Shown: in pieces, positions 51,501 to 64,000 of the stretch
Layout of the letters: each line of letters starts with the position of its first letter
Position numbering within the stretch: the first letter of the stretch is position 1
The notes under the pieces: model-generated
The model's input: only the letters and a program-made list of their open reading frames with translations
The model's database searches: none
What the model was told of the DNA's origin: nothing
Made by a program: the position numbers and the translations under genes
Origin: a virus
Direction: 5' to 3' (one strand)
Length of the DNA stretch: 64,000 nucleotides
IMG/VR virus record: IMGVR_UViG_3300020401_000014
Location: 1 to 64,000 of that record

Positions 51501-54500
51501 ATAGAGTTTCCATCAATTCCGTAGTAATCAATATTAGTATGGCCTGTATCCAATTGGCCTTGATTAAATTCTGCTTGAGTAATTTGTTTCCAAATTGTTT
51601 GAGATATAATATTTTGATTTATTAATTGATCAAACCTTTGGTTTGATTCCTGAACATTGGACACAAATTTATAATTTTTCGAACCTACGCTCGAATCTAT
51701 GTAGCCAGGAATTATTCCTGCGTAATCTTCAGGATTTTCGAGGTCTACATCAGAAGTATTTTTAAGGCATTTATAAACATGCACTGGCGTTTCAGCCTCA
51801 GCCGTAGAAAACAATAAAGACAACTCTTGCTCACTGTAACCAGATTGTTCTTCTAAGCCAAAAGTCCTAATCCATTCTTCATAAGTTTTATAAGTTCCAT
51901 CTGGCGACAAAACTTTAACTGGCCCAGAAGTTACAACAACCAGATCTCCAGGCGAATAATTACCTCCTTGAACCCATGACGGTAAGTTTGTTTCTGTATT
52001 GTTTTCTGCAATTTTATTGATGATTCCTTCTTCTGATACTGCCCGTTTCCAACCAAACCCAAGCGTCACGGCGCTTCTGCCGGATGTAGGCCAACTATTA
52101 GAATTGGCTAAAACTCTAAATGAGGTATATGTTGTAATTGAGGTTACTGAGGTGTTTATCCAAGCTAAATTATCATCTACCAAAACCAGCTTTGACCATA
52201 AACCAGGGTGTTCTAAAGGGTTTTTATCTTGGCTTGCTTTTTTCGCTCTAAAAAAATGATAAGCTTGTTTCGGCGAGAATCCAGCATTTTGTTTAATACA
52301 TTTGTAGTAAACCTTACTTGCACCCTCCCAACAGTAAATAATATCATCTATACTGTAATTTTGATCATGAAACCAAGGGTTTGTGCTTGATGTTGTTGTT
52401 TTTTCCCAATAATCTCCAGAAGAAAGCTTTACAATGGTTTGCGTTTTATATTCTTTAGAATCACTCCAGCTTATTGCTGCGTCTTCTAGTTTAATCGCGC
52501 CAGAACTTGCGCCAGTTTGTTTTCCGTGAGCGCTACCAACAACTAATTTAAATAAATCGCTCTGTTGCTGGGCAAAAGTTTCTCCAAGATCTAACCAGAG
52601 ATTATTTGTCATTGTGCCATGGTCTTCTAATTCAGAAAATTCTTCTTTAAGCTCGTCTGCGTTTATGCCGGGAAATCCAGTCTGCATAAGTCCTACAATC
52701 CTTTTAAATTTTGAAGATGATAGCGCGTCTGTTCTGAGAAGAATTGGGCGATACGCTCTATCTATAACTCTAGTTTCATCCTCATATACTAAACCAGCAT
52801 TTGCTTGCTGATCTGTTGGATTTAATGCGTTACCTAGAATCAAATAGTGAAGCGGCTGAGCCTGCGTTGTATCTGCAGCAACACTTTGGGTATTGATCAT
52901 TTGAGTAATATTCCCGTCGGTAATCGGATTATAACTATAATTTCTTGGTTCAGGGGGCTGACCATATTGCTGGAAAGGCCAACCAGAACCATGCAATCCA
53001 TTAAGAGGGTTGCCGTTAGAAAAAAGCTGCGGCGTAACCATTTCAATTCTTTGCCTAGAGAGCAGGTCTTCAATCATCAATACATATTTGCCAAGCAAAT
53101 GACTACCCTTATTTCCACCAGGATGCACGCCCCCTCTTCTTCTTGCATGAACATAGCCACGAGACATATAATAACAAGGAATTAAATTATCATACGTATA
53201 ATGAACAAGATCTCCAGTTGCATTTTCAATACTCACATTAGAAGGTGAAAAACTGTCGACATTTAAATATGAATTTATTTTATTATTGTCTATAGAATGG
53301 GTAGCAAAAGTAGATACGCCAGATATTGATAAAAATTTTATGCTAGTAGTTCTTCCGAATGTTACCGCTAACCTTGGTTGGCCTCCATGGTCTTTTCTTA
53401 AGTTTTTCGTATATATTAAAATATCATATTGTCCATCTTGAAAAGGTCCAGAAGAATTATTTGCCCCAGAATACCAAGGCCGACATTTACTTGAATGATA
53501 AAGATTTAATTTATTTCCCCATTTAGCCATTAAGTGCCCATATATATTTGATCCGCCACCAAAATCATTCATTCTTATTCTTGCTTTTGTTGGAATTATT
53601 GATTCGTTAGCAAGATTCTTGGAAACAGAACTAGAGTCTACTTGAAATCCTCTATGTGTCGCCTGCTTATTAACCAAATAGTCATATATAGAGCTTAATG
53701 AAGAATTAGGTCGATTAGTTGATGATGCATAATCTCTCCAAAAACTAGATGCATTATTCCATGGTATTTTGTCAAAATCATAATTTCCAGAAGCATCTCT
53801 TGCAGGAGTCTCAGTATTTTTTATACAAACTGCCAGTCTTGGGTGTTCGGTAGAATCAAAAGATTCATCCCAATTTGAAGGTATACTTGTGGTATCAATT
53901 TGTCCACTTACAATTGGCTGAAAATAGTTTACAAAATCTCCAACAGAATAAACCTCTGAAGAATTAAAAACTTGCGCGTCGATATTTGGGTCTGTAGGGC
54001 TATTTGTTGCGTCAATAATGTTAGTGTTTGCACCCAAATGTGCATTTAAAGATGTAGACGCAAATCCAAATTCTTTACTAGGCAAGGGTGTTTTTCCTAC
54101 GCCCGAAATAGCGAACTCTGGATAATTAACAGCTAATCTATCAAATCCAATGCCATCATCTAAATTAGGGCTTGGTTTTTTGGTTCTTACCACTCCGCCT
54201 CCCATAGAAGCACCTCCCGTAGGCCTTAAGGCTATAGCTGCTCCATTTTTATCACGCGGCAAAAAAGTTGCATTACAAACAATAAAAGGCATGTTAATAA
54301 ACTCAAACAAATTTAAGCATATTTCGTTTTCATTTACAGCATTACCAGAACCATTAATAAAATCATTCCTAGAAACCAATCTGACCCCTGTATGGTGAGT
54401 GATATTTAATTCCTCCATCGACTTCCATGAACTCGAAGAAGGTGGGTTAAAATCGCCAGCATTATTACCATCAACACAAACATATAAGTTTGTTGAGCTT

Positions 54501-54730
54501 GGTGTCGGCCTTTCTTCTCTTGACAAAAGATCCAGATCGTCACTATAGTAAATTGCAATGTGCCCGACTTGATACTGTGCCCCTAGACGAAACCTAGCGT
54601 ACCACATTGGCAGAGCGCCCGGTAAAGCCGCCCTGTGGGCGCCAAATATATTTCTATTAGATATTCCGGCAAAGGCGGGTTCTGCAGACAAAAAGTCTAA
54701 ATTAAAATCAATATGTACTCCGCCGCCCAT
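36578..54730 (-). CDS. Giant 6050-aa adhesin/tail-fibre-like protein
   Basis: Uninterrupted 18.15-kb ORF; about a dozen CBM5/12-like WxxxxxYxxGDxV motifs, RCC1/BLIP-II-like blades and a DUF4214-like motif; no signal peptide. Confidence 0.7.
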   Translation of the reverse strand: MGGGVHIDFNLDFLSAEPAFAGISNRNIFGAHRAALPGALPMWYARFRLGAQYQVGHIAIYYSDDLDLLSREERPTPSSTNLYVCVDGNNAGDFNPPSSSSWKSMEELNITHHTGVRLVSRNDFINGSGNAVNENEICLNLFEFINMPFIVCNATFLPRDKNGAAIALRPTGGASMGGGVVRTKKPSPNLDDGIGFDRLAVNYPEFAISGVGKTPLPSKEFGFASTSLNAHLGANTNIIDATNSPTDPNIDAQVFNSSEVYSVGDFVNYFQPIVSGQIDTTSIPSNWDESFDSTEHPRLAVCIKNTETPARDASGNYDFDKIPWNNASSFWRDYASSTNRPNSSLSSIYDYLVNKQATHRGFQVDSSSVSKNLANESIIPTKARIRMNDFGGGSNIYGHLMAKWGNKLNLYHSSKCRPWYSGANNSSGPFQDGQYDILIYTKNLRKDHGGQPRLAVTFGRTTSIKFLSISGVSTFATHSIDNNKINSYLNVDSFSPSNVSIENATGDLVHYTYDNLIPCYYMSRGYVHARRRGGVHPGGNKGSHLLGKYVLMIEDLLSRQRIEMVTPQLFSNGNPLNGLHGSGWPFQQYGQPPEPRNYSYNPITDGNITQMINTQSVAADTTQAQPLHYLILGNALNPTDQQANAGLVYEDETRVIDRAYRPILLRTDALSSSKFKRIVGLMQTGFPGINADELKEEFSELEDHGTMTNNLWLDLGETFAQQQSDLFKLVVGSAHGKQTGASSGAIKLEDAAISWSDSKEYKTQTIVKLSSGDYWEKTTTSSTNPWFHDQNYSIDDIIYCWEGASKVYYKCIKQNAGFSPKQAYHFFRAKKASQDKNPLEHPGLWSKLVLVDDNLAWINTSVTSITTYTSFRVLANSNSWPTSGRSAVTLGFGWKRAVSEEGIINKIAENNTETNLPSWVQGGNYSPGDLVVVTSGPVKVLSPDGTYKTYEEWIRTFGLEEQSGYSEQELSLLFSTAEAETPVHVYKCLKNTSDVDLENPEDYAGIIPGYIDSSVGSKNYKFVSNVQESNQRFDQLINQNIISQTIWKQITQAEFNQGQLDTGHTNIDYYGIDGNSINKKDVYGSGNCSYDLAFENYYEIGDAVKMGDDFFVKIKMFCLVEEVPSGYDLEDPVIDFDTIIKTESQKAVYNYNINLELSGPANYSTSSTVHSLIRTKWWQPIAKRTGELKKLYGSDNQSNTYFVSPRSFDYLYLNDGVYEQTDQTVLSSQIKVYSDEVKTFDVRGEAFYWSSNVKNITSSMINALDISDSNPELNLENLRVTSIYHPYISQAEFGVNWVTGKGLTANHPLVSNNAHPAVEYFKSWLDSNFDVDFTRDFASGNPSIVDEKLSDKFNLQKLFEKYNPTVKFKYTVLDESGNQVGQADRQYNGETIEISKDESLEITPELEEENGTLITSYSAILNSISSGNVIGEYLRSPREDYQKSISFDLLFTNLSISNPPVDADGLRIPFFTMSEATSGNQDTTSFAANAVTWSEDGEYSRYSIVEYGGNYYELSAGKTELFKNTPNRAVNHYRLLSHNNPTNNFQNNNETEDGVIFAAELSSGDSGFVKYDKNTDYNEPITAPDDVPPFSSEGSIINSGVDLNLFSNSNIFVGGDSQVDLQGEYSQVYTEISTKDTLLSRFKKLNNFYDQISDHSDLFRSSPKWKDVDGPGSDSQTGDLLNLEWSPSEVYSKGDIVTYQNKIYISKELNNNLNPALEPPEWSIVQHYHESSHYSAGDYIYIYQEILELIDEEEGISQSNIQKYGPSEYSGPNEFYPSLSKRKSYKIGEKIVFDNKIYECHTEGSVQAEPDLLLVFNLVSNYSGEPDHGGDIVFFVCQKDLQPGDGGHNPRKVSLLAGMHGDDDVLIRTNDNISKIYNYDEKIQLNFEYQNDGQFSESEKTICISVFGNTESTLLQNIVDEPEITDSHPSLISGYSINSIGEGLVSSGVISFKVKVNNPDPTAVSEIPFEGLNQSEKTSSKFASSGASMFCKNRFIINNNKLYASGLDSSEFGFIGLLEDTSDLKIDLDEYGDESVAYNKMYPFDQISNQEVKIFEENDGDFDYSNATEEASVSGVTMVDSEGGNTVFIFNNKLYGFGHNQGYSLGLCADANDNFGIGQRASSLSLQEKSSEATQDMMEAFLHFDAEYYLKLQATGSDYNLGDERGVFADDQSKVLMAWKYFKNFGFYKSLPAEYELICHSVINSSQISNPYNGYISNLNWSFTDQYNSSKSWIAQSGVMSTVSAYAPPYKPSEFWQTGGLHAFNIDQKYAPTDSNQMVIGDIDAYQEVSIFENFKRLNNKTSDKSEYIETIKSNAAQFKFLSDKVSTVDLSFGGSEPSIGWNGILVSEDALNQNHPNFSSSIINPASQTPATSLSRFKIGDLIGASSLDSFGTTTNFRSFYNTNLIYSNEDPNNQIMPKETLYVQGKPFWDPIIGCPDHVVFDFVSGEYPEGSDDSKDNVLGLYKLVSESNITFGNYPRFSKSLEISNLAGGERWQDGLSGNIKSVIPARTYVPRATKLTDEDVTWASTNKYSTFYINSSGQVKALGSVCACPAFEIQGFDDSDLSSEGNLNLNSEIDIQNFDSFGNLRLSPDPYVYSNDAWGLVYSEKGTVDSSNLQNKSDILSGESKIAGKDNSIYNFFNPLDGSFITSAPLESDVTTHNGIEVNQFGIYSPTSVFHVPWFSGVNSDATVDAVYRLILNRASDTAGEAYYTARGYLTVYELVQHIIDEGINHGGEYDPSIHGEDPTPASVKRDFEFLKTFGNTGISYASSTPAKHLIQISPDFFGAVNIENCERQEVNGTYRMATAFNDLNQWYNHPFNSDARSEGYGIWVSEKDTAYGKILIFFDAAFKLWRMQYSDFYVQETFSSGADPKIELLIAMQYHYEDANAADGTGYTKTSKANNKTPADVDSWVVGTGAWLNQDVEEGGEAQDPVVVSNTQHTFYDSTRVSWPARRFYSAYNWNTTQHAHLTIFPIPLDATVTNPSFTFGTDGHTNLFSPDGVSHYFNRRDWQGARPVEIIRNYTFPTEAINLVSSESLRDALALQNFNVAEDDDEYYHKGTVHSNFSGDAVSMPGEHLIVDDSFEIVGALDNDGSKQIDVNTVVDITIPTGDQAGNTRTWIPAHWGDKFNIKNDSNSNLPAWPGYRTEGGIIYGNGGWNYIPEDVDFVTEFSGNNIASGALGHYRGGAVREAFSMLSPFDTVPTGSRDSLDVWRYNLNVEAESITFKVKFTKKPGNFNSTGVAFGFYIFQDAGYKPLYMTDVDALFSTWPLTHKYPGDPLFLDFSRSAFMYGFSSIGAYLSDDTPGFGGIETPGFAGFPGAGSLPIIYNGNPLEIGLVDNFVGDGYNTVSASGAMLPTGTADFHFQDDSQRKTVPDVYVQNGEFVTLGGTRFYYFNPNFAPSSGRDFMHDNKFDADARQYAFLQRFFRWDNYIYEAYDDNGTFTFSGPNRDLIINSSGLTGSRPENFSADQWGIASDHILNRDENRIIGFGVQGYGAAITLYNASLIDGFPSAPGAELTSDAQFERHDAFHVNSHFGSGSSHNFGSYADFDENGELEMEITLLFNDTLNYSASNSIPPQGFFVVPVAEHLDTVSEIDLNLLNEEYEITASVTPFVEVFDEPMFLSSCTTLHVVTQDPVTNAPLTQVQAAEKNITPQSFSLESGGVSQYYSSITGLDASPFDYEISETYIQSDFTERFLSAGFPKKSWVNYFLGELTDWNFYFDNQPGLESQLSAQYPGVPLALLGLYDWNSQMFWNQRVEKSQYLQAGGSQRIKSSASYYRGIDSMRHNADWFYDDIFGWTTKSNGTHEPPSNLKQYSDSEWYFTTKYNCWFEVKSDQKTRRDNGSSFDVFLLNYGFNLIQHSPGSIPYNNDGLVSFDSFGEVLVGEIQIDQTYNQLDSYVYNNGDVVKIELAESEKLYRTLYFVSLKDNNTEEVGFIGSLSQVDEKKIKVPAPKGITKRYSITKQNTSSDSNLDGSLVVYDPSEYGGDKAKSVELGDSHALILTESGKVFGVGDNSFKQIDKKFTRNDNFNGLIQDDLYGRSVNNDILYLECIQNNAQSPFDQKSHWKQIPKPVWPVNAWKQSSTYSVGDKVFVRNETFFSILYLPQGNTNVKVTDKVIGSKWLDLGFWTEMEATFENSNRYAMSSEVVCARTIGEMFEREWAPGYSSSPPFDNSFYNVIIFAGKKDLIHHTKGMKSQHRYSYGDSFFITDRCYLNPHQIFNFESVSAVQNVRISAIDASGKGSIFLDSSNNLYGIGNNEISCSKKGEYLSDNPLGTVFGFRSEFLEGPSFIADGVTFMSKVGDCVSFISGGKSYRAGGVGLNPYFENYQELGAPALILDNDGTEIKAKTVFVESVDFWDKEDWFMERFLSQKFKNKFYLKGEKYKEMSESRISLNSRVGQYTSHTYNTPEINSFIEPYDSAKNYQAHIKSGQIYDAETETYIQTERPELSSGRDSAIKFNALPSAFESTVPSLVTYENKIYKCIQNNGADNFSNEVNSLFMKNRRCRNWQSSFTEDNMVFIPGQAGSELYWEEVSDLQNKNIIQTIVEKLNLFSFSSMIYVDSNNKLNIRGYNFGYTSGTGGVMSGLKDNSALIANERGSELGVRSPESQNIIRKHAGVKAFNYDLTNAVRLQNPFHVSSLYLDLQQGFVRDWVHPDPVGVEFNQTISGGRSLNCVDFLGFNRARGRYLFAFENSSQAFVGQTWSGGYDYNEGEYVFDEGQVYRAKVEIAGEAFNSQSPADDTNRWEQLTGTLRQTEIEAATNMDIGDYSNLNFVSQNTVYGSLNFADFQLLANNWKPHVSSHAPTGRILDRELSNSSSFGRKNTLFNGELYYSWPVLDPFAPSFMQGLGAKYATPLTQRFVIGHYTPANYAGIDRLDIGLIDFSSNPYGHKTGLESLRDNVYSWLNFEHSTEYPALIPAALRTPVKGLLSWWDLVKDVSKKLKYSKNIDTSIQDHQAFSEFTFMENYYGVENSNTFPLSDKTHFEAKPHISESAAPWQNRDNTQYYNPWSESNNFIQYAAKQENWSVFTSLTTYDMKNFDNIYGGNVNSNMLAGFLNDSQILNPSNFEDSIWDEWFSSQINEDDFSGLTDAFKELTIFDLNSHDKFLLGSYMLDPASLPFGESIPRWGYGFESDKIVSKSEYNIGERVFHKGFCFVSTVNSNSLEPVVSNSRDAGIDENGWNAIEPEELHRFRSQIGTAHQVTSAKLNSNSIVDGDPYLRQEYIPQQTIGHSQIDFSFARKSDLTNFHKIKDFDLFDRAEWNKANQNNETPADLMPHETHPIVEAENTRAEPLSAQAKNIKGIDYPFWYAVKSQAQSAAYNSYFDNYWSNFQGYSGFSQQKFHYMHSLGRFYHVLGYYDEYHTNATGDSGYERKSKSEIPAGDNTQPDDSPVFWIFNFRVPTNIPNYIQNYEYTFANGTKISVNPRFAVRTSAQIQAMKNQIDANGVESILDESGNVLTDPEEIANNIPIEIFYHVRDMVQTSPTLQAVKNVKYKFPKPAFPNPFGQVTDYMEAVSEMHNFGFSNFTKGSDASTDIWGREINQDFYCSPKFSTDYYNQLKENYYIDRSPTGISNVYCENTMTESNISTWKNDSAISLYSIDASGDLSFTKQDDIIQVPNGAFYLPNRNKMHVESTGLLLTKEEKDHSQILYKYTNSAGNLVVSAVLYGPELYYRGGEFRSNFEFVKGKVYLVLGGLYVCLQSWDVVSMHGNNDVRFPFLGKNDYMEFLGDIYANSVSIQSEDVYSQSADGKLALVSDKKFNYFEDFAHAIRNRRHLRFELRKIWSMETNVNNQSMNYIDSGTTYRHQGFINPSDTSSDKYAYVLEGGFAGIAMSDYFDIFKDTYSNKINKSYTDSESHNTTSLATTFQVGLHHKHHQISKDQAKLLAEKHIINLAKKREGLDYVWYDARKCKWIAGRNWLQESVAGEYSSEDLARSAAQNAGLSDNDLFEWGVECYPDIYKNDDGSVNRSMDKWIEHDVIYIGGKKHHQCLARIHGVIEKWKSEIDNKFPGILKVKNGGLALALLGSMINIKDWHNTNIEIDIAQ

Positions 54731-55244
54731 TTTTATAAAAAGTTACTTGAGAAAATTTTTTATCTTTGGGCGTGATTTCGGCTCCCAAAAACTTCAACCA
54801 TCGGATGCCTAATTTATTTTTATTTTCTACTATGTTTACAAGTATATCAAAATCTTCTCCAAATAGCCAATCAAAGTGGTCTTTTGATATTTTCATAAAT
54901 TCATATGCGCCCAGAATGCTTTTTAGGTTGCCATAACTTTTTTTCATTCCTCCTTTGAATTTTAATATGTCAAGAGAGCTTTTGGTTCCCAAGGCCCAGA
55001 CTCCGCCCACTCTTTCGTGAGGAGACTCATGCACGCCAAGGCACCCAACCAACGAATCATCGCTAAAACAAAACGAGAGGCTTCTTACTGAAGAATTAAA
55101 TGTACTAACAACATGCTCTTGATAGTTTTCCCAGCCCAAATATTGTGAGTGCCTTAAATCAACCTCTCTAGGATGCATGCACAACTCCATAATATCTCCA
55201 TCTTGCACGTCCCTGACATAGCCATTTTTACCTAAAATTTTCAT
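54708..55244 (-). CDS. GNAT-fold protein, T7 gp13/DUF2833-like
   Basis: LVGCLGV...GGVWALGT...LVNIVENKNKLGIRWLKFLGAEI. Confidence 0.55.
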   Translation of the reverse strand: MKILGKNGYVRDVQDGDIMELCMHPREVDLRHSQYLGWENYQEHVVSTFNSSVRSLSFCFSDDSLVGCLGVHESPHERVGGVWALGTKSSLDILKFKGGMKKSYGNLKSILGAYEFMKISKDHFDWLFGEDFDILVNIVENKNKLGIRWLKFLGAEITPKDKKFSQVTFYKNGRRSTY

Positions 55245-55284
55245 ACCGAACCTTATATATTATATACACAAGAGGCTGAATTTA

Positions 55285-56364
55285 TTAACTTTTATTGTGC
55301 TTAACTAGATTGTTTTGGAAAAATACTAAATTTTTGGGGTTCGTAGGAGAAAACCCTTTTAGCATAGCTCTATTTTGTTCTTCGTAAACATTTATATTTT
55401 CTTCGTGATTTTTTACTGCATTAATTAACTGATTCGCAGCAAAATTTATATTACAATCATTATAATAATATCCATATGATTTAATATATTCAGAATTATG
55501 TATAAGCGGTAAATTTAAATACAAAGCTTCTAAAAATAAATAATTTAAAATATTGTTTTCTTGATATGATAATACATATTTTCCTATACTATTAAATACA
55601 TCAAATGAACTCCAAGACCCACTTAAAAATAATTTCTTTACTTTATCTATATTTAATTGTCGCGTGAATTTAAAAATGTTTTTACTTTTTTTAAGCTTTT
55701 GAGTATTAAACATACTAAATGAGTCAAAGCTCTCGGGTGAAATATGATTTGCTCGCTCACAAATTAACATAGGTACTAGAGAATTCTTAAAAGCATTTTG
55801 ATTGTTTTCAAGTACAACTACATTCTTCTTTTCATTTTTAACTTTAAAATTTATATTTTTTTCGTTTTTCTTTATACTGATAAACATAGGCGACCAAAGG
55901 TATGGTGCGGCCTTTGACTCGCAGTCCATATTGTGATACGTTTTAGCATACTCCAACGAAGCTGCATGATGTTCTGGAACCCACACTTCATCAGCATACC
56001 AGGTTCTTGCTCGCATTTGCCTAGAGTTTACAAAATCCTCTTGGTCTATTGCTGCAGAGTAATAATGATCGTATAAAATAAACTTACAAGCTGGATTAGC
56101 TTCTTTTATTTTTGTATATTCTGCTTTAGAAAGCTCAAAGCAAGACATTATGACATAATCTATTTCAGGAAACTTTTCTAAATATACATCTTCTATATCA
56201 TAAAACTTACAATCTAGATTATTTTGCACATCAGACTTAAATCTATTTAACAAAAAAACATTAAATCCTGCTTTTTCGATAGATTTATACATAAAAATTG
56301 AGGCTTGAATTGCAGATTTTTTCCAAACTGAACTGCCTAAATCGCAAGTAATAAAAATATTCAT
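55285..56364 (-). CDS. DUF2827-like putative glycosyltransferase
   Basis: PYLWSPMFI, VLENNQNAFKNSLVPMLICE, QENNILNYLFLEALYLNLPLIHNS...GYYY. Confidence 0.65.
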   Translation of the reverse strand: MNIFITCDLGSSVWKKSAIQASIFMYKSIEKAGFNVFLLNRFKSDVQNNLDCKFYDIEDVYLEKFPEIDYVIMSCFELSKAEYTKIKEANPACKFILYDHYYSAAIDQEDFVNSRQMRARTWYADEVWVPEHHAASLEYAKTYHNMDCESKAAPYLWSPMFISIKKNEKNINFKVKNEKKNVVVLENNQNAFKNSLVPMLICERANHISPESFDSFSMFNTQKLKKSKNIFKFTRQLNIDKVKKLFLSGSWSSFDVFNSIGKYVLSYQENNILNYLFLEALYLNLPLIHNSEYIKSYGYYYNDCNINFAANQLINAVKNHEENINVYEEQNRAMLKGFSPTNPKNLVFFQNNLVKHNKS

Positions 56365-56370
56365 AAATAC

Positions 56371-56388
56371 GTGTAATCTATTTTACAC
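56371..56388. promoter_or_regulatory. Overlapping inverted GTGTA motifs (GTGTAA-N6-TTACAC) between divergent GT genes
   Basis: 38-bp intergenic region between ORFs starting at 56364(-) and 56403(+). Confidence 0.55.
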
Positions 56389-56402
56389 AAATATAACGCA
56401 TA

Positions 56403-57227
56403 ATGGAGATACCAAAGATCATTCATCAAAGCCACAAAGGGCCAGAGTCTACAATACCTGAGCGAGAATTAAAAATCAGGTCTAAGCTTTTAATGAATCA
56501 TGCTGACTGGGAATATAAGTACTGGACAGACGAAGATAATAGAAAATTAATAACAGACCATTATCCTTGGTTTTTGAAAACATACGATCAATATGCTTAT
56601 CCAATACAAAGAGCAGATGTTGCCAGATATTTTTATATGCACAAATATGGCGGGGTATATTTAGATTTAGACATGTTTTCCTTGCAGCCAATGGACGAAT
56701 TATTTCAAAGAATTAACGATAATGAAGCTCAATTTCTTGTAAACGTCACAGGACATAAATCGGTTGTATTATTTGAAGAGTATCCAAACGCTTATGGAGC
56801 ACAGAAATCCATTTATAACGCCATACTTGCCTCCGAAAGAGGGGCGGATTTTTGGATGCTATGCTTTTATATGCTAGCCCAAGAGCAAAAATTACAAAAC
56901 TACGAAGACATTGGAATGGAAAATACAGTTTTCAGAACTACTGGCCCTAGGTTTCTCCATAGTGCCGCAAACGCACATATTAACATGTCTTATTTAAAAA
57001 ATTTATGTATACTGCCTTACTTTTATACAAACCCTGTTTGCCTAAGGGTAAAAGGTAGCGATAATCAACTAGTATTATTTAATAAGTATAACATCAAATC
57101 TTTATTTCAAAAAGCAAATCTTGATGGCGGTTGGTTGTTGGTGCCGAAAGATTATCAAACAAAAGAGCTGCTCGCTGATTCTTACTTTATGCACTTATCA
57201 GCTAGGACCTGGAGCCATGAAAGATAG
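56403..57227 (+). CDS. Glycosyltransferase, DxD sugar-binding (GT32/OCH1-like)
   Basis: IPKIIHQS, YKYWTDED, QRADVARYFYMHKYGGVYLDLD, TTGP. Confidence 0.85.
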   Translation: MEIPKIIHQSHKGPESTIPERELKIRSKLLMNHADWEYKYWTDEDNRKLITDHYPWFLKTYDQYAYPIQRADVARYFYMHKYGGVYLDLDMFSLQPMDELFQRINDNEAQFLVNVTGHKSVVLFEEYPNAYGAQKSIYNAILASERGADFWMLCFYMLAQEQKLQNYEDIGMENTVFRTTGPRFLHSAANAHINMSYLKNLCILPYFYTNPVCLRVKGSDNQLVLFNKYNIKSLFQKANLDGGWLLVPKDYQTKELLADSYFMHLSARTWSHER

Positions 57228-58455
57228 AATTATATTTGACAATAGGTTTCTATTTGATCATCAATTTGAATTTGAAGGTTTTTTTATGGATTGTGAAATT
57301 GGTAGTGAAGAATTTTTTAGCTACATTTGCAAAAAACTTATACCTCTAACAAATGATAAAAATGCAATGCAAAACTTGCTAGGAGACTTCAAATATTATC
57401 CTGAAGATTACAGAGGTGAATACGACCATGCCGTAGCAAACCACAACTACAATCAGTTTTTAAACCTCTATACCACACCCAATCCTAGGTGCTGGGTTGA
57501 CAAATTTAAAAATGTATTTAGCGATACAAGTGGATTTATTCACGAAGGTTGGGATTTAGCAATAAAAGAATTTAAGCCATTCTGGGGTTTGGGAGACGTT
57601 AATTTTATGACTTTTTTTGAGTCGCATTTTGGCTGGTTTTCTAATGAAGAAAGTATGATGGAGTTTTCTGGCATGAATATATCTATGCTTTGCGAGTTAT
57701 TTCCTAAGGAAAAATTTGTGGCAATAGTACACGACCCATTTGATACCAGTAAGTACATAAATAAAATTACTCCATATCCAGATGAAGTTCTAGATATTAT
57801 ATCCAAACAATGCTTGGGGATGTATTTTCTTAGCGATTGTGAGGTAGATAAATATAAATCTTTTTTTAGATCTAAAGGAATCAACATTCCTTGTGAAAAA
57901 ATTTTACATCCCATCAAAAAGATTGAGAAAATTTTCGACATAGAGGGCTTTTTATCTAGACCAAAAAGAAAACTAACCTCTTCAGGAATACATTTAAGAA
58001 ACCCTTTTGATTTTACCAAAATGATGGTTCCAGCAAATTACTCAAAAAGATTAATACCATGGGAGATAAGGCTGCAAAACGCATATTCAAACCCAGGAGC
58101 AAATGCAGACGACATTGAAAAAACACCACCAATCTCTATTAAAGAATACTACAAATTATACGAAACTGATATATTTTTCTTGAGCACTTTTGATTGTTCT
58201 GCAAATAATGTAGTATTAGATTGCATAGATTGTGCAACACCAATTTTAGTAAAAAGAAACCCTTCCATGGAAGAATATTTGGGACCTAAATACCCGTTGT
58301 TTTTTGATGACATAATTGATGCGCACGTTTTATTATCGTCTGATATTAATATAGTTAAAGCCCACGAATACCTAAAAAGCATTAGGCAGAAATTTTTAAA
58401 GATAGGCTCTATATACAATCAAATTAAAAATACAGATATATATAAGTCAATTTAA
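57217..58455 (+). CDS. Putative GT-B-like glycan biosynthesis protein
   Basis: GFIHEG and C-terminal DCSANNVVLDCIDCATPILVKRNPSMEEYLGPKYPLFF; context within the GT cluster; start MKDRII. Confidence 0.45.
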   Translation: MKDRIIFDNRFLFDHQFEFEGFFMDCEIGSEEFFSYICKKLIPLTNDKNAMQNLLGDFKYYPEDYRGEYDHAVANHNYNQFLNLYTTPNPRCWVDKFKNVFSDTSGFIHEGWDLAIKEFKPFWGLGDVNFMTFFESHFGWFSNEESMMEFSGMNISMLCELFPKEKFVAIVHDPFDTSKYINKITPYPDEVLDIISKQCLGMYFLSDCEVDKYKSFFRSKGINIPCEKILHPIKKIEKIFDIEGFLSRPKRKLTSSGIHLRNPFDFTKMMVPANYSKRLIPWEIRLQNAYSNPGANADDIEKTPPISIKEYYKLYETDIFFLSTFDCSANNVVLDCIDCATPILVKRNPSMEEYLGPKYPLFFDDIIDAHVLLSSDINIVKAHEYLKSIRQKFLKIGSIYNQIKNTDIYKSI

Positions 58456-59262
58456 ATCGTCTGCCCACTCCTTTACGACTGAACCGTAAATTTTAAAAAA
58501 TTCATCAAAATGATCCTGCAGAACATCAAAAGCCGCTTTCCGTTCGTCTTCAGACAGAGGTTTTTTACTTCTAGCATGCCCTACCTTGTTTTTCATTTCT
58601 AAATCGGTTACGCCTAAAAATTTAAATATTTCACTATATTGATCTTGCCCTGCGGGTATTGTTTGTCCATTTTGGTATTCTACATTTTCTTTATAGCATG
58701 GGGGCATTAAGCGTTCCTGTATGACAAATAACATTTTATCTCTTTTAAAATATTTTAAGTATGACTCTAGTGTTGACGCATAATTATACTTTGTAAACGC
58801 TTGATGGTTTTTTAAATTATAAATAAAATCTTCACTAGGGTCCCATTGTTGATTATTTGGCTTGCACCACTGCTCGCCTCTAGCCAAGCACTGCTGATAG
58901 TGATTATAAGCAGAGTATGCTCGGTCTATTGGGTTTCTGAATGTAAAAATTAATTTTACGTTAGGCACAATCTGACTCATCCTTTTTGCTGAAAATTCTG
59001 GCCTAAGAGAATAGCTGGGAGATTTTTCTCCGCACACTTTTAAGTCTGTGTTAAATTTAGATTTATACCAATTTAAAGCTTCTTCATGAGGCATTTCATG
59101 AAAACCTTTAGACTTGCAAAAAAAATTTATTTCGGGTCTTGCGGCGCAATATTGACCCTCGCAATAAGCCATGTAAATATCTGGATGATTATCCAGATTT
59201 TTTCTGAGAGCTGTGGTGCCTGATTTTTGAAAACCAGGAATTATAAAGTCAGGAAGCCTCAT
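58447..59262 (-). CDS. PAPS-dependent sulfotransferase (heparan-sulfate-ST-like)
   Basis: 5'-PSB LPDFIIPGFQKSGTTAL; GEKSPSY; 3'-PB KLIFTFRNPIDRAYSAYNH. Confidence 0.88.
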   Translation of the reverse strand: MRLPDFIIPGFQKSGTTALRKNLDNHPDIYMAYCEGQYCAARPEINFFCKSKGFHEMPHEEALNWYKSKFNTDLKVCGEKSPSYSLRPEFSAKRMSQIVPNVKLIFTFRNPIDRAYSAYNHYQQCLARGEQWCKPNNQQWDPSEDFIYNLKNHQAFTKYNYASTLESYLKYFKRDKMLFVIQERLMPPCYKENVEYQNGQTIPAGQDQYSEIFKFLGVTDLEMKNKVGHARSKKPLSEDERKAAFDVLQDHFDEFFKIYGSVVKEWADDLN

Positions 59263-59264
59263 GA

Positions 59265-60341
59265 TTATTTTTCAGTTATAAGGATATATTTCAAAAAGTC
59301 TTTTATGGTTTTTTCTCGCTCTTCGGATGTTTTTTTACCACAGAAATATTCCTCTTCGTGAAACATTGACCAGAACGACCCTTCTATATCGCATTTTAAC
59401 TCTTCTGCAGAAGGTCTAGTAGACATGACTTCTGCAAGAGCTTTCAGGCTAAGAGCGTTCAGTTTGGCAAGACTGTTTTGAATATATTCGTTAACTTCTT
59501 CTAGCGTAATTTCTTTGAAGCATTTTTCTGCATGTCGCTTTTGTTCTAAAAACTTTTTGACACCTAATCCAACTTCTTCTCCATTATGATCAAAATGCGT
59601 GCAAACCATTTGTGAATCTAAAACAATATCATAACCTCTAAGTTTTATATCATTGCATAAACAAATATCTGGACCCCAAAAGTAAGATTTTGTTCCTTCT
59701 GGAATTTCTACTCTAAGAGGCAAGCAGTCCTTGACAACACTACTCCTCCATAATGCACACCCTGTGCCGCAGTGAGTGATATCTAGCTCTCCCATCCCCC
59801 AAACATCGTCAATATCGCACATCCCATCTTTTTTTAGATTACGCGCAACGGAGACCATACGAGAGCTATCTTCCCTGCTCCAGTCTGGGTTAGTAAAGTA
59901 ATATCCAGTCATACATCCAATGCGATTATTCTTCATCATTGAAACTAAAAATGCCATTAATATATGAGAAGGACAAAGGACGTCGTCGTCTAAAGTAAAA
60001 ATATAGTCAGATTTACAATACTCAAAGCCAAAATTAAATGCGTCTGCTGTTGATTTATGCTTTTTGTATGCATTCTCTGAATCCCTTGCTTTTTCAATAA
60101 CATCAGGCAGCCCAGCGGTGCAATTAATGATGTTGATTTCTTTAAACGCTTCATTGGCATTATGTTCAGCAAGAGTATCTTGCATAATTTTAGAAAAGCT
60201 TGGGTCGCAAGCATTATCTACTACCGTTAAAGATACATTAGGCACGGAACTACCCATAGTAAACAAGGAGCTGGCCCATGACTCTAAAACCCCAACCTTG
60301 CCACATACAACAGTCAATATATCAACAGATGGAAATGCCAT
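59265..60341 (-). CDS. Glycosyltransferase family 2
   Basis: VVDNACD, AFNFGFEYCKSDYIFTLDDD, GTGCALW, WGPDICLC. Confidence 0.8.
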   Translation of the reverse strand: MAFPSVDILTVVCGKVGVLESWASSLFTMGSSVPNVSLTVVDNACDPSFSKIMQDTLAEHNANEAFKEINIINCTAGLPDVIEKARDSENAYKKHKSTADAFNFGFEYCKSDYIFTLDDDVLCPSHILMAFLVSMMKNNRIGCMTGYYFTNPDWSREDSSRMVSVARNLKKDGMCDIDDVWGMGELDITHCGTGCALWRSSVVKDCLPLRVEIPEGTKSYFWGPDICLCNDIKLRGYDIVLDSQMVCTHFDHNGEEVGLGVKKFLEQKRHAEKCFKEITLEEVNEYIQNSLAKLNALSLKALAEVMSTRPSAEELKCDIEGSFWSMFHEEEYFCGKKTSEEREKTIKDFLKYILITEK

Positions 60342-60350
60342 ATAATTATT

Positions 60351-60375
60351 TACACGGCTCGCACATCAAGGTGTA
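60351..60375. promoter_or_regulatory. Back-to-back GTGTA motifs between divergent GT genes
   Basis: TACAC 60351-60355 lies 9 nt from ATG 60341(-); GTGTA 60371-60375 lies 10 nt from ATG 60386(+). Confidence 0.6.
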
Positions 60376-60385
60376 CATTATTTTA

Positions 60386-61111
60386 ATGAAAATTGCATTA
60401 ATTCAGCTAGGAGACAAAGAGTACGCCGCAGAAAATATAGGCTGCCTTCATTTAAATAGTTTATACTGTGAAAAATATGGTTATTCGCATATAGTCGAGA
60501 GCTTAAATTTTCCAGACATAGAAGCCACTTATCAAAAGCCATATATATTACTAAAGTACATGCATGATTTTGATTATGTTATATGGGCAGATCTTGACTC
60601 TGCAATTATAAATCATGAGATTAAATTGGAAGATATAATTAATTCATACTCAGACAAAGATTATTTAATTTTTAAAGATCCTGGGAACTGGGATTTTAAT
60701 GCTGGAATTTTAGTTTTTAAAAATTGCTTAAGTAATACCAAGCTGCTTTGGCAATGGTGGAATATGTGCCCTAAAGTGCCTCACCCCGAATGGAGAAAAG
60801 TTGGAGGCGATCAAGAGCTACTACATCAATTGCTAGAGTCAAAAGGTCCGATAGATTCGCTCCCGGCAAAAATTATGAATCAACACCCTAAGAATTTTAT
60901 TGCTGGAGATTTTTTGATTCACTTTATGGGCTATTTCTCTGAAGACGTTAAAACTCATATGTGTTTTCTTGTTGGACAAAACAAAGATTCCGAATGGAAC
61001 GGTAGGTACTTAGAAGCTTTTGGAAAAATTCATCCAACCATAACTGATCGACTTGAGGGTAATCATCTTGATACTATAAAGCCAGAGGAAATTGTTAATT
61101 TGATGTTATAG
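60386..61111 (+). CDS. Glycosyltransferase, GT34 (GMA12/MNN10)-like
   Basis: TYQKPYILL...DYVIWADLDSAIIN...FNAGILVFKN...GDQE; start MKIALIQ. Confidence 0.75.
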   Translation: MKIALIQLGDKEYAAENIGCLHLNSLYCEKYGYSHIVESLNFPDIEATYQKPYILLKYMHDFDYVIWADLDSAIINHEIKLEDIINSYSDKDYLIFKDPGNWDFNAGILVFKNCLSNTKLLWQWWNMCPKVPHPEWRKVGGDQELLHQLLESKGPIDSLPAKIMNQHPKNFIAGDFLIHFMGYFSEDVKTHMCFLVGQNKDSEWNGRYLEAFGKIHPTITDRLEGNHLDTIKPEEIVNLML

Positions 61112-61419
61112 AGTTATATGCCTATCAGCTTGAGGCGATACCAATTCAATAAATAATATTTACTAATTTAAATTATAATTATTTCGGCTGACGCCGGAAT
61201 CGCCTGGGGGGCATATACAAAATCATTATTAAAACAAAATAATGATAGAAAAACTATATTAAAAACATAATATATTATATGCAAACAATCAATTTGTTAC
61301 GAAAAAAAATGAAAACAAAATTTAAACAGCGTGGTGAAAAAATAAGAAAAGAGGTTTACGTTTGATGGTATTCGTTTTTACAGTCTACGACAAAGCCCCG
61401 AAAGTTATAATACAAAACA

Positions 61420-61998
61420 ATGAATGATGATATATATAATTTAATTAAAGAGTATACTTGTCTTAATGTATATGAAATAAATTATCTTATTGATGTTGTA
61501 TATAATGCTCCTATTGGTAATATAGTTATTGCTGGTACTTATTTAGGAGGAGATGTAATGTCTATGATGTTAACTAGTCCAGATAGAGAATACCATGTAA
61601 TTGACTCCTTTCAGGGTTTAGCTCCTCCCGGACAAGAAGATATGTGTGATAACCCTTGTGTGGAAGGTGAGTTTAATGCAGGAGGGGTAGATAAGTGGCT
61701 AAGTAATTTTAAAAAGAAAAAAATCAGAGAGCCGCGAACATACCCCATGTTTATAGATGAAAATACAATACAATCAGTCGATGTTAGCAATATTGCCGTA
61801 TTATGGATGGATCTTGATCATTATGTTCCAACTAAAACTTGCTTAGATCATTTCTACGATAAAATAGTTGACGGAGGTAAAATACTAACTCATGATTACG
61901 GTTTTTATAAATGCCCTGGAATTAAAAAAGCCTGCGACCCGTATGCAAAAAACTGGCATAAACCAGCAAATACTGGCATAGGGACAATTAGCATATGA
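61420..61998 (+). CDS. TylF/MycF/NovP-family sugar O-methyltransferase
   Basis: AGTYLGG, IDSFQGL, LWMDLDHYVPTK, GGKILTHDY. Confidence 0.8.
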   Translation: MNDDIYNLIKEYTCLNVYEINYLIDVVYNAPIGNIVIAGTYLGGDVMSMMLTSPDREYHVIDSFQGLAPPGQEDMCDNPCVEGEFNAGGVDKWLSNFKKKKIREPRTYPMFIDENTIQSVDVSNIAVLWMDLDHYVPTKTCLDHFYDKIVDGGKILTHDYGFYKCPGIKKACDPYAKNWHKPANTGIGTISI

Positions 61999-62747
61999 GT
62001 TTTAAAATGATAAAAATTATTGGCGAGCGAAACTCGGGAACACATTGGCTGAAGCACTTAATCTCTACAAATAGTGATGCCGAGGTTTGCGATGAAGACA
62101 AACATTTATTTAAATTAAAAGCAAAAAACATAAAATCATTAAAAACAGTAGATCTTTTTTCAGAATCAGAATACATAAACTGCCTTAACCTAAATTCTCC
62201 TGATGTTCTAAGTATTTATATATACAAATCAACACTAAGCTGGATTGCCTCCATGCACAAAACTCCATACCACGCCTGGGAAATGGCGGACATAAACGAA
62301 GACGGGTTACTCTGCTCAAACAAAAAAATGTCTGAATTTATTAGATCAAAATGGACAGAAAGAGGTGGTTGGATCACAGACTATAAAAATAACCCTTCAG
62401 CATACGGTGTGCTTGCTGAATATGAAAACGTGATTGACTTAAGAAATAAAAAACACGAGTCGGTTTTTAGCCTCGCCTCTCAGTGTCCTAATTTTAAATT
62501 TGTTAAATATGAAAATCTTTTGTTTAACACAGAGACTGTGCTGTCAAATATATTATTAAAAGAAGATATTTTATTACCAAACAACCAAAGCAAAACTCAT
62601 AAAAACTCAAAATTGTGGTCTGAGCAAAGAAAGAATTATTACAAAAACCAAGAATACAAGCTTTTATTTAGTCAAGAAGACTGCGAGTTTATATCCTCCC
62701 AAATAAATCATGACTTTGAATTTAAGCTAGATTTTTTGTCTAATTAA
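61995..62747 (+). CDS. Second sulfotransferase-like protein
   Basis: IIGERNSGTHWL (5'-PSB-like), YKSTLSWIASM, FVKYENLL. Confidence 0.65.
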   Translation: MSFKMIKIIGERNSGTHWLKHLISTNSDAEVCDEDKHLFKLKAKNIKSLKTVDLFSESEYINCLNLNSPDVLSIYIYKSTLSWIASMHKTPYHAWEMADINEDGLLCSNKKMSEFIRSKWTERGGWITDYKNNPSAYGVLAEYENVIDLRNKKHESVFSLASQCPNFKFVKYENLLFNTETVLSNILLKEDILLPNNQSKTHKNSKLWSEQRKNYYKNQEYKLLFSQEDCEFISSQINHDFEFKLDFLSN

Positions 62748-63126
62748 TTTTAATTTGTTTTGGCTTACATTTTTCCGCTTTAGGAATTTTAATTTCTAGT
62801 ATTCCATTTTCTACTTTTGCTTCAATTTTGCTAGCGTCAACATCTGGTCCGAGCTTGAAAGTTCGGTCAATTGACGTATGCATATGCGAATTGATATCTT
62901 TCTCTCCTGTTACGCGTAATATAGCATTTTCAGCTGTAATAGTGACGTCTGATTTAGACATCCCTGGAATTTGCGCAGTGATAACATAATTATCCTCCTT
63001 TTGATCGATTGTTGTTCGGTATTTATAGGAATCTATACTTGAGTCGATCACATTGTTAATCGCTTCATCAAAAACGCCTAACAATTCAGTCTCCCCAAAG
63101 AAGTTAGTGAATAGTGAATTTTTCAT
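62740..63126 (-). CDS. Small heat-shock protein (Hsp20/alpha-crystallin)
   Basis: YVITAQIPGMSKSDVTI...LRVTGEK...RTFKLG...IEAKVENGILEIKIPK. Confidence 0.9.
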   Translation of the reverse strand: MKNSLFTNFFGETELLGVFDEAINNVIDSSIDSYKYRTTIDQKEDNYVITAQIPGMSKSDVTITAENAILRVTGEKDINSHMHTSIDRTFKLGPDVDASKIEAKVENGILEIKIPKAEKCKPKQIKIN

Positions 63127-63204
63127 ATGCAAGTATATTTGCATACTTCATGCCAATTTAAAAACCGCTATAATAAAGCCTGACAGGATAAAACTGAGAC
63201 AAAA

Positions 63205-64000
63205 TTACTCAGGGCGCTTTCCGAGGGGTTTGCCGTCCTGGCCAATTTGTCCCGATCTTATTTTTGTGGCGGAGACATCTTGCATTTCTTTGCTTAATTC
63301 TAGCTGCTCAATATTATAACCCACACCTCTGCCGTAAAAAACGTCTGTAATATTAGGGAGTTCAACAACCCGGATTTTATCTCCAAATTCAACGCAAGCT
63401 TTTTCTATTTCGTATTTTACCTTTTCAAAATCATACGGATTACTGTCATCAGTTCCAGCAACATCCCTTAATGCAATGCAACATTGACCAACCCGTTGAA
63501 TAGATTCTTGTACTAAAGTTTTGTGGCCTATATGAAATGGCTGATATCTGCCAATTAAAAGTGCTGTTGGGGCCTGGTTGTCCCATTTCTCTGTTTCATA
63601 TATTTTTCTAAGAACTTTTTCAACCCATTCTTCTGGCGAACCATCAGTTAATCTTACGTCGTAATTCATGGGTCTTTCGAATAGCTTATTAGTATCTTCA
63701 TATCTACCTTCAAGAATTCTATCTACCCATATTATTAAATCAGCATTAAATACATCCCTGGTTTCTTTAGTTGGGCAGCAAAAATCCGCTATAACAAAAT
63801 TTCCACCCATGGCAGCCCAATCACTTAGCTTGCCTAATCTTCTAGCATGCTCTATTCTATCTTCTTCAGAAAATCCCAAATCTTTGTGGATTTCTTGCCT
63901 TATAGCATCAGCATTAAACCATACCGCTCCAAGTGCAGGTACAAGAAGTTCTGCCAGGGTAGTTTTACCACTCCCAGGCAATCCCATTATTAATATTTTT
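63205..64000 (-). CDS. APS-kinase-like domain fused to a HIGH-motif nucleotidyltransferase; start at or just beyond the window end
   Basis: GLPGSGKTT, NADAIR...DLGFSEEDRIEHARR (CysC-like); GRYQPFHIGH and SATKIR. Confidence 0.75.
   Translation of the reverse strand, partial: KILIMGLPGSGKTTLAELLVPALGAVWFNADAIRQEIHKDLGFSEEDRIEHARRLGKLSDWAAMGGNFVIADFCCPTKETRDVFNADLIIWVDRILEGRYEDTNKLFERPMNYDVRLTDGSPEEWVEKVLRKIYETEKWDNQAPTALLIGRYQPFHIGHKTLVQESIQRVGQCCIALRDVAGTDDSNPYDFEKVKYEIEKACVEFGDKIRVVELPNITDVFYGRGVGYNIEQLELSKEMQDVSATKIRSGQIGQDGKPLGKRPE

Follow-up and report, generated by a model that had tools for sequence, protein, structure and literature searches.

Gene content of the cluster and its carrier

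We analysed positions 1–64,000 (hereafter the window, 64,000 nucleotides in full) of the IMG/VR virus record IMGVR_UViG_3300020401_000014, in which a cluster at 55285–64000 encodes glycosyltransferases, sulfotransferases, a methyltransferase and a kinase-nucleotidyltransferase fusion. A first-pass annotation had described this region as a phage pathway for a sulfated, O-methylated glycan that is served by the phage's own sulfate-donor enzyme and coats the virion or the giant fibre encoded next to it. The present analysis favors a glycan-tailoring island that decorates a structural protein of the phage, and we put the probability of this explanation as a whole at roughly 50%.

The cluster is carried by a marine phage, uncultured and tailed, whose tail is contractile and whose genome measures about 200 kb. 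Besides a prohead-protease-like gene, the window encodes the large terminase TerL, DnaB, a DnaE-type polymerase and Lon, and the presence of these four genes, together with synteny with a 204.9-kb IMG/VR contig, shows that the cluster is phage-borne. It is located between the structural genes and the early region, outside the replication module. Cultured relatives of TerL, Lon and the polymerase are distant only and do not point to a host, and a Megablast search of the cluster region against cultured phages gave zero matches. Eight IMG/VR contigs (37.6–204.9 kb) were recovered using the fusion gene as query. The related contigs are designated G001–G007, among which G001 and G002 are complete. 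G001 (204,906 bp, rated complete) is the closest relative and is syntenic across the whole cluster; its matching locus, L001, is the source of the identities given below.

Five soluble glycosyltransferases are encoded in the cluster (Pfam matches reported here are above the gathering score). The first, on the minus strand at 55285–56364, is a DUF2827 protein of the GT-B fold (PF10933, E 2e-50) with a 46% identical orthologue at the same place in G001. Its AlphaFold2 (AF2) model (predicted local distance difference test, pLDDT, 66.8) consists of two Rossmann-like halves and resembles GT4 enzymes, BshA among them (Foldseek E 3e-8, template-modelling (TM) score about 0.6). Divergent from it, on the plus strand, are a GT32-type enzyme with a DXD motif (56403–57227; Gly_transf_sug, E 6.9e-21; 56% identical in G001) and a GT-B/GT4-like protein of uncertain start (57217–58455), of which G001 keeps only the last 318 aa (tblastn 48% identity, residues 127–444 of the long form). 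The GT2 enzyme (59265–60341, minus strand; Glycos_transf_2, E 1.9e-6, 28.4 bits against a cut-off of 23.3) is the first of a two-gene unit with a sulfotransferase. The fifth, on the plus strand at 60386–61111, is a GT34/DUF273-like protein of the GT-A type (Glyco_transf_34, 27.4 bits against a cut-off of 23; DUF273, 29.4 bits), the start of which is probably at 60386 and not at 60278, its G001 orthologue being 242 aa long.

The sulfotransferase paired with the GT2 enzyme, ST1 (58447–59262, minus strand), matches Sulfotransfer_1 (PF00685, E 8.6e-11, 42.1 bits against a cut-off of 22) and Sulfotransfer_3 (E 1.7e-9). Because it keeps both motifs for binding of 3'-phosphoadenosine-5'-phosphosulfate (PAPS), i.e. 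the 5'-phosphosulfate-binding (5'-PSB; KSGTT) and 3'-phosphate-binding (3'-PB; RNPIDRAYS) motifs, and 13 of its 14 solved relatives in PDB are heparan-sulfate glucosamine 3-O- or N-sulfotransferases, ST1 is classified by its sequence as a carbohydrate-type, PAPS-dependent enzyme. A second, divergent sulfotransferase-like protein, ST2 (61995–62747, plus strand), carries the N-terminal motif GERNSGTHW and follows a TylF-like S-adenosylmethionine-dependent methyltransferase (61420–61998, plus strand; TylF, E 2.1e-11, profile positions 86–242 of 264; 75% identical in G001). Neither ST2 nor the GT4-like protein had a match in the Pfam search. Both were assigned from structural look-alikes in the ESM Atlas, which are leads and not proofs: GT4-family proteins for the latter (TM 0.58–0.61), and viral sulfotransferase clusters and sulfotransferase-family models for ST2 (feature score 0.97, TM 0.67–0.69). 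The look-alikes of these two proteins are mostly viral clusters, not bacterial ones, and include clusters of Nucleocytoviricota.

A Kyte-Doolittle scan of the cluster open reading frames (ORFs) revealed no transmembrane-grade hydrophobic stretch and no signal-peptide-like N-terminus, and the Pfam and NCBIfam matches of the 10 ORFs included no flippase, polymerase, initiating transferase or nucleotide-sugar synthase family. These observations agree with the first-pass annotation, as do the alternating strands of the genes, the five glycosyltransferases of different families (four by Pfam, the GT4-like one by its ESM Atlas look-alikes), and the TylF-type methyltransferase and the kinase fusion, both found by Pfam. 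Of the two sulfotransferases that it had listed, ST1 is upheld by Pfam and by the PAPS motifs, whereas ST2 is sulfotransferase-like by the ESM Atlas only. Its inventory is corrected in three respects: a small heat-shock protein gene is located inside the cluster, the start of the GT34-like gene is moved, and the fusion is truncated by the window end.

Variable islands in related phages

Judged by sequence comparison with G001, the kind of island is conserved while its content changes fast, and this divergence is in step with that of the neighboring giant protein. Flanking and replication genes are 77–94% identical (fusion 92%, phrog_308-like protein 80%, ribonucleotide reductase 94%, DnaB 83%), against 46–56% for the glycan genes (TylF 75%) and 57% for the first 750 aa of the giant protein, the counterpart of which is a 5899-aa ORF at the syntenic place. 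Gene content differs as well: ST2 is swapped in G001 for a 202-aa methyltransferase-like gene in the same position, and an extra methyltransferase gene is inserted. The site of this extra 269-aa gene corresponds to a 308-nt non-coding gap in the window (61112–61419), in which comparison with the G001 gene found zero remnant of it.

In the other contigs the fusion is about 78–80% identical and is flanked by different genes, and the sulfotransferase islands of the relatives, 8–18 kb in size, are swappable. Pooled together, the neighbors of the fusion comprise nine Sulfotransfer_2 proteins, GT2, GT25, GT32/Caps_synth, Fringe-like, GT47 and LicD proteins, a pyruvyl transferase, FkbM/TylF methyltransferases, epimerase/RmlD-like proteins and one inorganic pyrophosphatase. 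G003 has, downstream of the fusion, an 18-kb run of 23 co-directional genes, among them six for sulfotransferases. The co-directional island of G004 starts with the fusion and ends with the inorganic pyrophosphatase gene (L008:18358-18867), the product of which would pull any activation step that releases pyrophosphate. The glycan-tailoring island is hence a clade-wide feature, with 10–25 genes per genome devoted to such glycan chemistry in a very abundant group of marine phages.

The kinase-nucleotidyltransferase fusion

The gene at the far end of the cluster (63205–64000, minus strand) encodes an APS-kinase-like domain joined to an NMNAT-like nucleotidyltransferase domain of 110 aa (APS_kinase, E 4.9e-12; CTP_transf_like; phrog_10255, E 4.7e-51), APS being adenosine 5'-phosphosulfate. 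Its ORF runs past the window end and is about 5 codons short when compared with the 269-aa G001 orthologue. The protein is a full-length member of PHROG 10255, and its family, which counts 3469 clusters at 90% identity and 138 representatives at E 1e-30 or better, includes stand-alone, split and reordered forms.

Both the sequence and the structural model identify the first half as specifically APS-kinase-like. Nineteen of the 21 sequence matches of the fusion in PDB are APS kinases, as are all of about the top 50 Foldseek matches of its AF2 model (pLDDT 92.5), and alignment with VIA-align gave Z scores of 17.2–18.5 for five APS kinases (22–32% identity) and of 16.4 for gluconate kinase (14% identity). 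The GxxGxGKT P-loop is present. The NADxxR segment, in which the first Asp of DGDxxR is changed to Asn, keeps D36 and R39, and DLGFSEEDR, corresponding to the LGFSxxDR motif, keeps F48 and R53. Across 51 homologues these four positions show little or no variation, and they align with D89, R92, F101 and R106 of human PAPSS1. We thus consider it probable that the kinase converts APS to PAPS. Weighing against this activity are the partial Pfam match (PF01583, 46.6 bits against a cut-off of 21.1, at profile positions 9–91 of 152 only, so that just the first 60% of the profile is aligned and its C-terminal third is missing) and the score with the NCBIfam APS kinase model TIGR00455, which at 50 bits is below the threshold of 138.7.

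The second domain, of about 110 aa, is a HIGH-motif nucleotidyltransferase with the invariant elements GRxQPxHxGH, NP, YGRxVGY and SxxxxR, and the NMNAT motifs GRFQPFHxGH and ISxTxIR are present and invariant in it. In profile searches it is closest to NadM and archaeal NMNAT (E 3e-9), followed by NadR and PPAT, yet it scores far below the cut-offs of the NCBIfam NMNAT equivalogs (31.6 versus 397 and 27.8 versus 181) and is short relative to the 168–181 aa of solved archaeal NMNATs. With ATP sulfurylase it shares the general HIGH-motif fold only. The absence of ATP sulfurylase among its PDB profile matches up to E 10 argues against a sulfate-activating role, the domain being NMNAT-like in sequence and in fold; the ATP sulfurylase family PF01747 is absent from the fusion protein and from G001–G005. 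Synthesis of APS by this domain is an appealing but speculative extension, which we offer at less than even odds. The idea that its YGRDVGY segment represents the GRDHAG loop of ATP sulfurylase was dropped because the Asp is replaced by G, K, Q or T in relatives and because the profile search returned zero ATP sulfurylases.

Association with sulfotransferases is strong evidence that the fusion has a role in sulfation, and it supports the fusion as the phage's own putative sulfate-donor enzyme. All seven fusion-bearing related phage contigs that were searched carry sulfotransferases, up to seven per genome; those of G001 are of types 1/3, and G002–G007 have type 2, in up to seven copies. The alternative that the fusion is independent of sulfotransferases had been considered for G002, which lacks PF00685 and PF13469, and was rejected as phages of this kind use Sulfotransfer_2. 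Sulfotransfer_2 was not found in 14 control bacteria, and tblastn of two of these sulfotransferases against 50,697 deposited phage records gave zero matches. The cultured Stenotrophomonas phage DLP_6 (KU682439.2) encodes an annotated sulfotransferase and the fusion, at 38223–38837 and 129043–129774. The fusion is also widespread in Alphaproteobacteria, including Bradyrhizobium, Xanthobacteraceae, Hyphomicrobiaceae and SAR11 (loci L019–L098), where a TPR-Sulfotransfer_3 gene often directly adjoins it (e.g. L055:3973-7903 and L072:3973-7918); in at least 7 of 23 alphaproteobacterial genomes, a Sulfotransfer_3 gene lies within the fusion locus with 8-kb flanks. Such relatives of the fusion might hint at a SAR11 host. 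Among 10 SAR11 genomes with the fusion, 8 show no ATP sulfurylase and 7 no other APS kinase, counts that are suggestive only, these genomes being incomplete. According to a recent preprint, the hypervariable regions of Pelagibacter contain sulfotransferases, and assimilatory sulfate reduction is missing in all 135 complete genomes (10.64898/2026.04.03.716430). The first-pass claim of a sulfate-donor enzyme is therefore supported by the association with sulfotransferases, while the second domain, NMNAT-like and not a known ATP sulfurylase, speaks against it.

A competing explanation is that the fusion is unrelated to sulfation and is a two-step cofactor enzyme, similar to NadR or coenzyme A (CoA) synthase, encoded by a general metabolic gene of the phage that merely borders the island, in which case the sulfotransferases would use host PAPS. 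The affinity of the nucleotidyltransferase domain to NadM and archaeal NMNAT, and then to NadR and PPAT, is what such an enzyme would show, and gluconate kinase is a close structural second in the kinase comparison (Z 16.4). Xylella phage Salvo encodes the fusion in a DNA-metabolism context but lacks all three sulfotransferase families searched, which fits the cofactor explanation and weakens the link to sulfation. The same may hold for one conserved SAR11 context, which could hint at another substrate. In this context (L093, L095–L098) the two domains are separate, abutting genes (L095:7998-8405 and 8405-8779) that adjoin enoyl-CoA hydratase and CoA-binding genes, not glycan genes. On the other side, the kinase matches APS kinases specifically, the residues that align with APS-binding ones are kept, the fusion accompanies sulfotransferases in the seven marine contigs and DLP_6 and adjoins them in many Alphaproteobacteria, and a pyrophosphatase closes the G004 island. 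On this balance a cofactor enzyme appears quite unlikely.

Candidate acceptors of the glycan

Upstream of the giant-protein gene, and co-oriented with it, the DUF2827 gene lies 40 nt from a gene for a 178-aa protein (54708–55244, minus strand) that resembles PHROG 308, 'internal virion protein' (phrog_308, E 2.6e-12; 80% identical in G001), and that gave no match in the Pfam search. The end of this ORF overlaps by 23 nt the start of the intact ORF of the 6050-aa giant protein (36578–54730, minus strand), which is a candidate acceptor of the glycan. The same arrangement is found in G001. Two copies of DUF2827 are present in each of G001, G002 and G005. In both G002 and G005 a DUF2827/GT34-like/DUF2827/GT32 module comes immediately after a co-oriented tail sheath gene (phrog_15433, E 2e-58), and the GT34-like paralogues in it are 30–33% identical to the window protein. 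Thus glycosyltransferase genes adjoin and are co-oriented with virion structural genes in the window, G001, G002 and G005. Bacterial DUF2827 proteins are cytoplasmic and constantly associated with genes of trimeric autotransporter adhesins, the glycosylation of which has been proposed (preprint 10.64898/2026.01.22.700529).

The sheath-adjacent modules (L099:8047-17589 in G002; L100:7892-15733 in G005) contain a GT32-containing protein of 501 aa and a further GT34-like gene, and in G002 only a 544-aa unknown protein; the G002 module is about 97 kb from the sulfation island. At the other end of the window, the window start truncates an ORF (1–435) whose homologue in G001 is a 465-aa gene adjoining the second DUF2827 copy of that genome (L101:8035-10602). 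For this reason a second DUF2827 gene is predicted to lie, probably, just before the window start. The window cluster looks like a merger of a protein-glycosylation module close to the structural genes (DUF2827, GT32 and GT34-like) with a sulfation and methylation island close to the fusion.

An acceptor among virion proteins is favored because DUF2827 adjoins the giant gene, the tail sheath gene and, in bacteria, adhesin genes, and the parallel divergence of island genes and giant protein from G001 counts in favor as well; we give a virion or other phage protein about an even chance. The first-pass annotation proposed that the virion or the giant fibre carries the glycan and suggested co-occurrence with giant fibres as a check; such co-occurrence does not hold as a general rule. 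Although the complete genome G002 carries DUF2827 genes and a sulfotransferase island along with the fusion, it contains no homologue of the giant protein, the N-terminus of which found none in G002–G005; this excludes the giant fibre as the general acceptor. What persists of that proposal is a putative coat on a virion protein, favored by the position of DUF2827; its further suggestion, that the coat baits hosts foraging on sulfated polysaccharides, is conjectural.

The main competitor for the acceptor is the host envelope. The phage enzymes would alter lipid-linked intermediates of host O-antigen, capsule or lipopolysaccharide (LPS) core, and the host flippase and ligase would export the sulfated glycan, changing the surface of the infected cell so that, for example, superinfection would be blocked or progeny would be freed from debris. 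The Caps_synth, GT25, LicD and pyruvyl transferase genes in the islands of the relatives are typical of capsule and LPS synthesis and, with GT2, GT4 and GT32, make up the standard kit. Bacterial homologues of the fusion lie in cell-surface polysaccharide loci of SAR11 and other Alphaproteobacteria; in SAR11 single-cell genomes the surface-polysaccharide region around the fusion holds epimerases, GT2, NeuB, DegT, methyltransferases and Sulfotransfer_1. Both points count against a phage protein as acceptor. The hypervariable regions of Pelagibacter have been described as phage-receptor determinants (10.64898/2026.04.03.716430), and the gene-for-gene differences seen among closely related phages would be consistent with phages that track host serotypes.

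Against the envelope, no initiating phosphoglycosyl transferase, Wzx/Wzy or ABC exporter was found in the window cluster or in the 18-kb G003 island (17 non-sulfotransferase ORFs), and no ligase either, whereas an O-antigen or capsule locus would combine such an initiating enzyme with one of these export routes. From the lack of a flippase, polymerase, nucleotide-sugar synthase and signal peptides, the first-pass annotation had argued for a protein acceptor. That argument is weak, since the glycosyltransferases that work on lipid-linked intermediates to make capsule and LPS are soluble too and rely on host carrier lipid and exporters. Also against the envelope are the DUF2827 modules that directly adjoin virion genes and the predominance of viral clusters among the look-alikes of two island proteins. 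Phage serotype conversion by GtrABC or Oac, moreover, involves few genes, several of them for membrane-bound products. Remodelling of the host envelope is, in our judgment, possible but doubtful.

Hypermodification of DNA, in which glycosyl-, sulfo- and methyltransferases would decorate modified phage bases as a defence against restriction, was the other alternative raised at first. Phage glycosyltransferases classically act on DNA, as in the T-even phages, the DUF2827 model has T4 beta-glucosyltransferase as one of its distant GT-B matches (rank 24, TM 0.45), and the DLP_6 sulfotransferase sits among replication genes with zero glycosyltransferases nearby, an arrangement that also speaks against decoration of a structural protein. 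However, five glycosyltransferase families and a heparan-sulfate-type sulfotransferase suggest an oligosaccharide rather than a base adduct, the cluster is placed away from the replication module, and the ThyA-family hydroxymethylase (PF00303) is unmatched in the complete genomes G001 and G002 as well as in G004 and G005. With this last result the DNA alternative is weakened, and we regard it as very improbable.

Proposed pathway and comparison with known systems

For decoration of a phage structural protein, we infer the following order of steps. The five soluble glycosyltransferases would build a short hetero-oligosaccharide in the cytoplasm of the infected cell, which one or two PAPS-dependent sulfotransferases and the TylF-like methyltransferase would then decorate. 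The flanking, strongly conserved two-domain fusion most likely secures the sulfate donor, its APS-kinase domain converting APS to PAPS and its NMNAT-like domain perhaps supplying APS from ATP and sulfate. The most likely acceptor would be a phage structural protein, here the adjacent, fibre-like 6050-aa protein, with DUF2827 acting as the protein-proximal transferase. The outcome would be a strain-specific, negatively charged glycan coat on the particle. In its boldest form the proposal states that an abundant marine myovirus clade coats its fibres or sheath with a strain-specific sulfated, methylated oligosaccharide made wholly in the cytoplasm, that a hitherto unrecognised 269-aa PAPS synthase supplies the donor with the 110-aa NMNAT-like domain performing the ATP-sulfurylase step, and that the same enzyme explains sulfation of surface glycans in SAR11 despite its lack of sulfate assimilation; that all of this holds together is rather unlikely.

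Human PAPSS1 has a full length of about 620 aa. Like the bifunctional PAPS synthases (human PAPSS1/2, PDB 1x6v; Aquifex Sat-APS kinase, 2gks), the fusion joins an APS kinase to a domain of the HIGH-motif nucleotidyltransferase fold. Its two domains are ordered as in PAPSS1, and the model aligns to 1x6v over both of them (231 residues, Z 18.0), with the domains oriented differently to each other. Unlike these enzymes, the fusion has a second domain of about 110 aa that is NMNAT-like and outside the ATP-sulfurylase family, and a kinase without the C-terminal third of the profile; the solved chain 1x6v_B has 586 residues compared with 269 aa in the phage protein.

In mycobacteriophages, one or two glycosyltransferases reportedly lie beside capsid or tail genes, with no sulfotransferase, methyltransferase or PAPS enzyme. 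The likeness to the window is that phage-encoded cytoplasmic glycosyltransferases beside structural genes are thought to glycosylate virion proteins, as mentioned in PMC11256854; the difference is one of scale, as the present phage group has at least five glycosyltransferases and up to seven sulfotransferases per genome. The fibril glycosylation clusters of Megavirinae (PMC10117803; reviewed in PMC9614988) are similar in that virus-encoded, clade-specific soluble glycosyltransferases and sugar-tailoring enzymes are proposed to act on particle fibres and in that their content varies between close relatives. Megavirinae are, however, giant viruses of eukaryotes that also encode nucleotide-sugar synthesis, whereas in the tailed phage studied here sulfation and its donor enzyme are central; the words 'sulfated' and 'sulfotransferase' never occur in the 2022 review of giant-virus glycans (PMC9614988).

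Among bacterial systems, the DUF2827 proteins beside trimeric autotransporter adhesins in Burkholderia, Veillonellales and Pasteurellales (10.64898/2026.01.22.700529) belong to the same Pfam family, are cytoplasmic, have the GT-B fold and are specified by genes that immediately adjoin that of a very long, fibrous surface protein and are often present in two or more copies. The phage neighbor differs in being the giant protein or the tail sheath gene and not an autotransporter, and the role of DUF2827 is putative in both cases. The Pelagibacter hypervariable region (10.64898/2026.04.03.716430) shares with the window the enzyme families, the fusion gene and the gene-for-gene replacement; bacterial loci differ in carrying genes for nucleotide-sugar synthesis and export (epimerases, DegT, NeuB, ABC transporter), of which the window island has none. 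Predicted bacterial operons that join sulfotransferases and PAPS synthetases to phage-tail-collar or collagen-like substrate proteins (PMC2938197) are, by analogy, a conceptual precedent for sulfation of a fibre protein.

The literature searched yielded no report of a phage sulfated-glycan pathway. Virus-encoded glycosylation is established in giant viruses and a few phages, and sulfation is not known as a component of it. If present, a variable, negatively charged glycan coat would be relevant to how phages adsorb, to their host range and decay, and to how they stick to marine particles, and the donor enzyme, if confirmed, would provide a new way of making PAPS, which would matter for sulfur metabolism in SAR11 and soil Alphaproteobacteria. 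Part of the question is directly testable in cultured DLP_6, which has the fusion and a sulfotransferase and is a possible laboratory model.

Expression signals and minor features

The motif GTGTA with an AT-rich tail is present 12–32 nt upstream (within 35 nt) of 17 of the 50 window genes, compared with 0.4 expected. As the first-pass annotation had noted for several genes, it precedes cluster genes, five in all, and it faces each way in both divergent intergenic regions (56365–56402 and 60342–60385), as found from the sequence and the motif statistics. Examples are the sites at 56371(+), 56384(-), 60351(-), 60371(+) and 55265(-); it lies 25 nt upstream of the phrog_308-like gene and 14 nt upstream of the GT2 gene. 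GTGTA looks like a phage-specific promoter or initiation element that marks an expression class. Since it is also found ahead of non-structural genes, Lon and the DUF1501 pair among them, besides the protease-like gene and other genes of the structural region, it cannot date the island as 'late' and offers no argument on timing.

An Rfam scan of 54000–64000 gave zero matches. Sites resembling sigma-70 promoters were not enriched (46 versus 42 expected), and terminator-like sites were weakly so (10 versus 5.5 expected). Between ST2 and the fusion, and thus inside the glycan cluster, a gene for an Hsp20 small heat-shock protein (62740–63144, minus strand; HSP20, E 3.6e-17) with no evident link to the pathway is 53% identical to a gene at the same place in G001. 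The likely transcription units are GT2 with ST1; GT32 with the GT4-like gene; the GT34-like gene with TylF and ST2; DUF2827 alone; the phrog_308-like gene with the giant protein; and the fusion with Hsp20.

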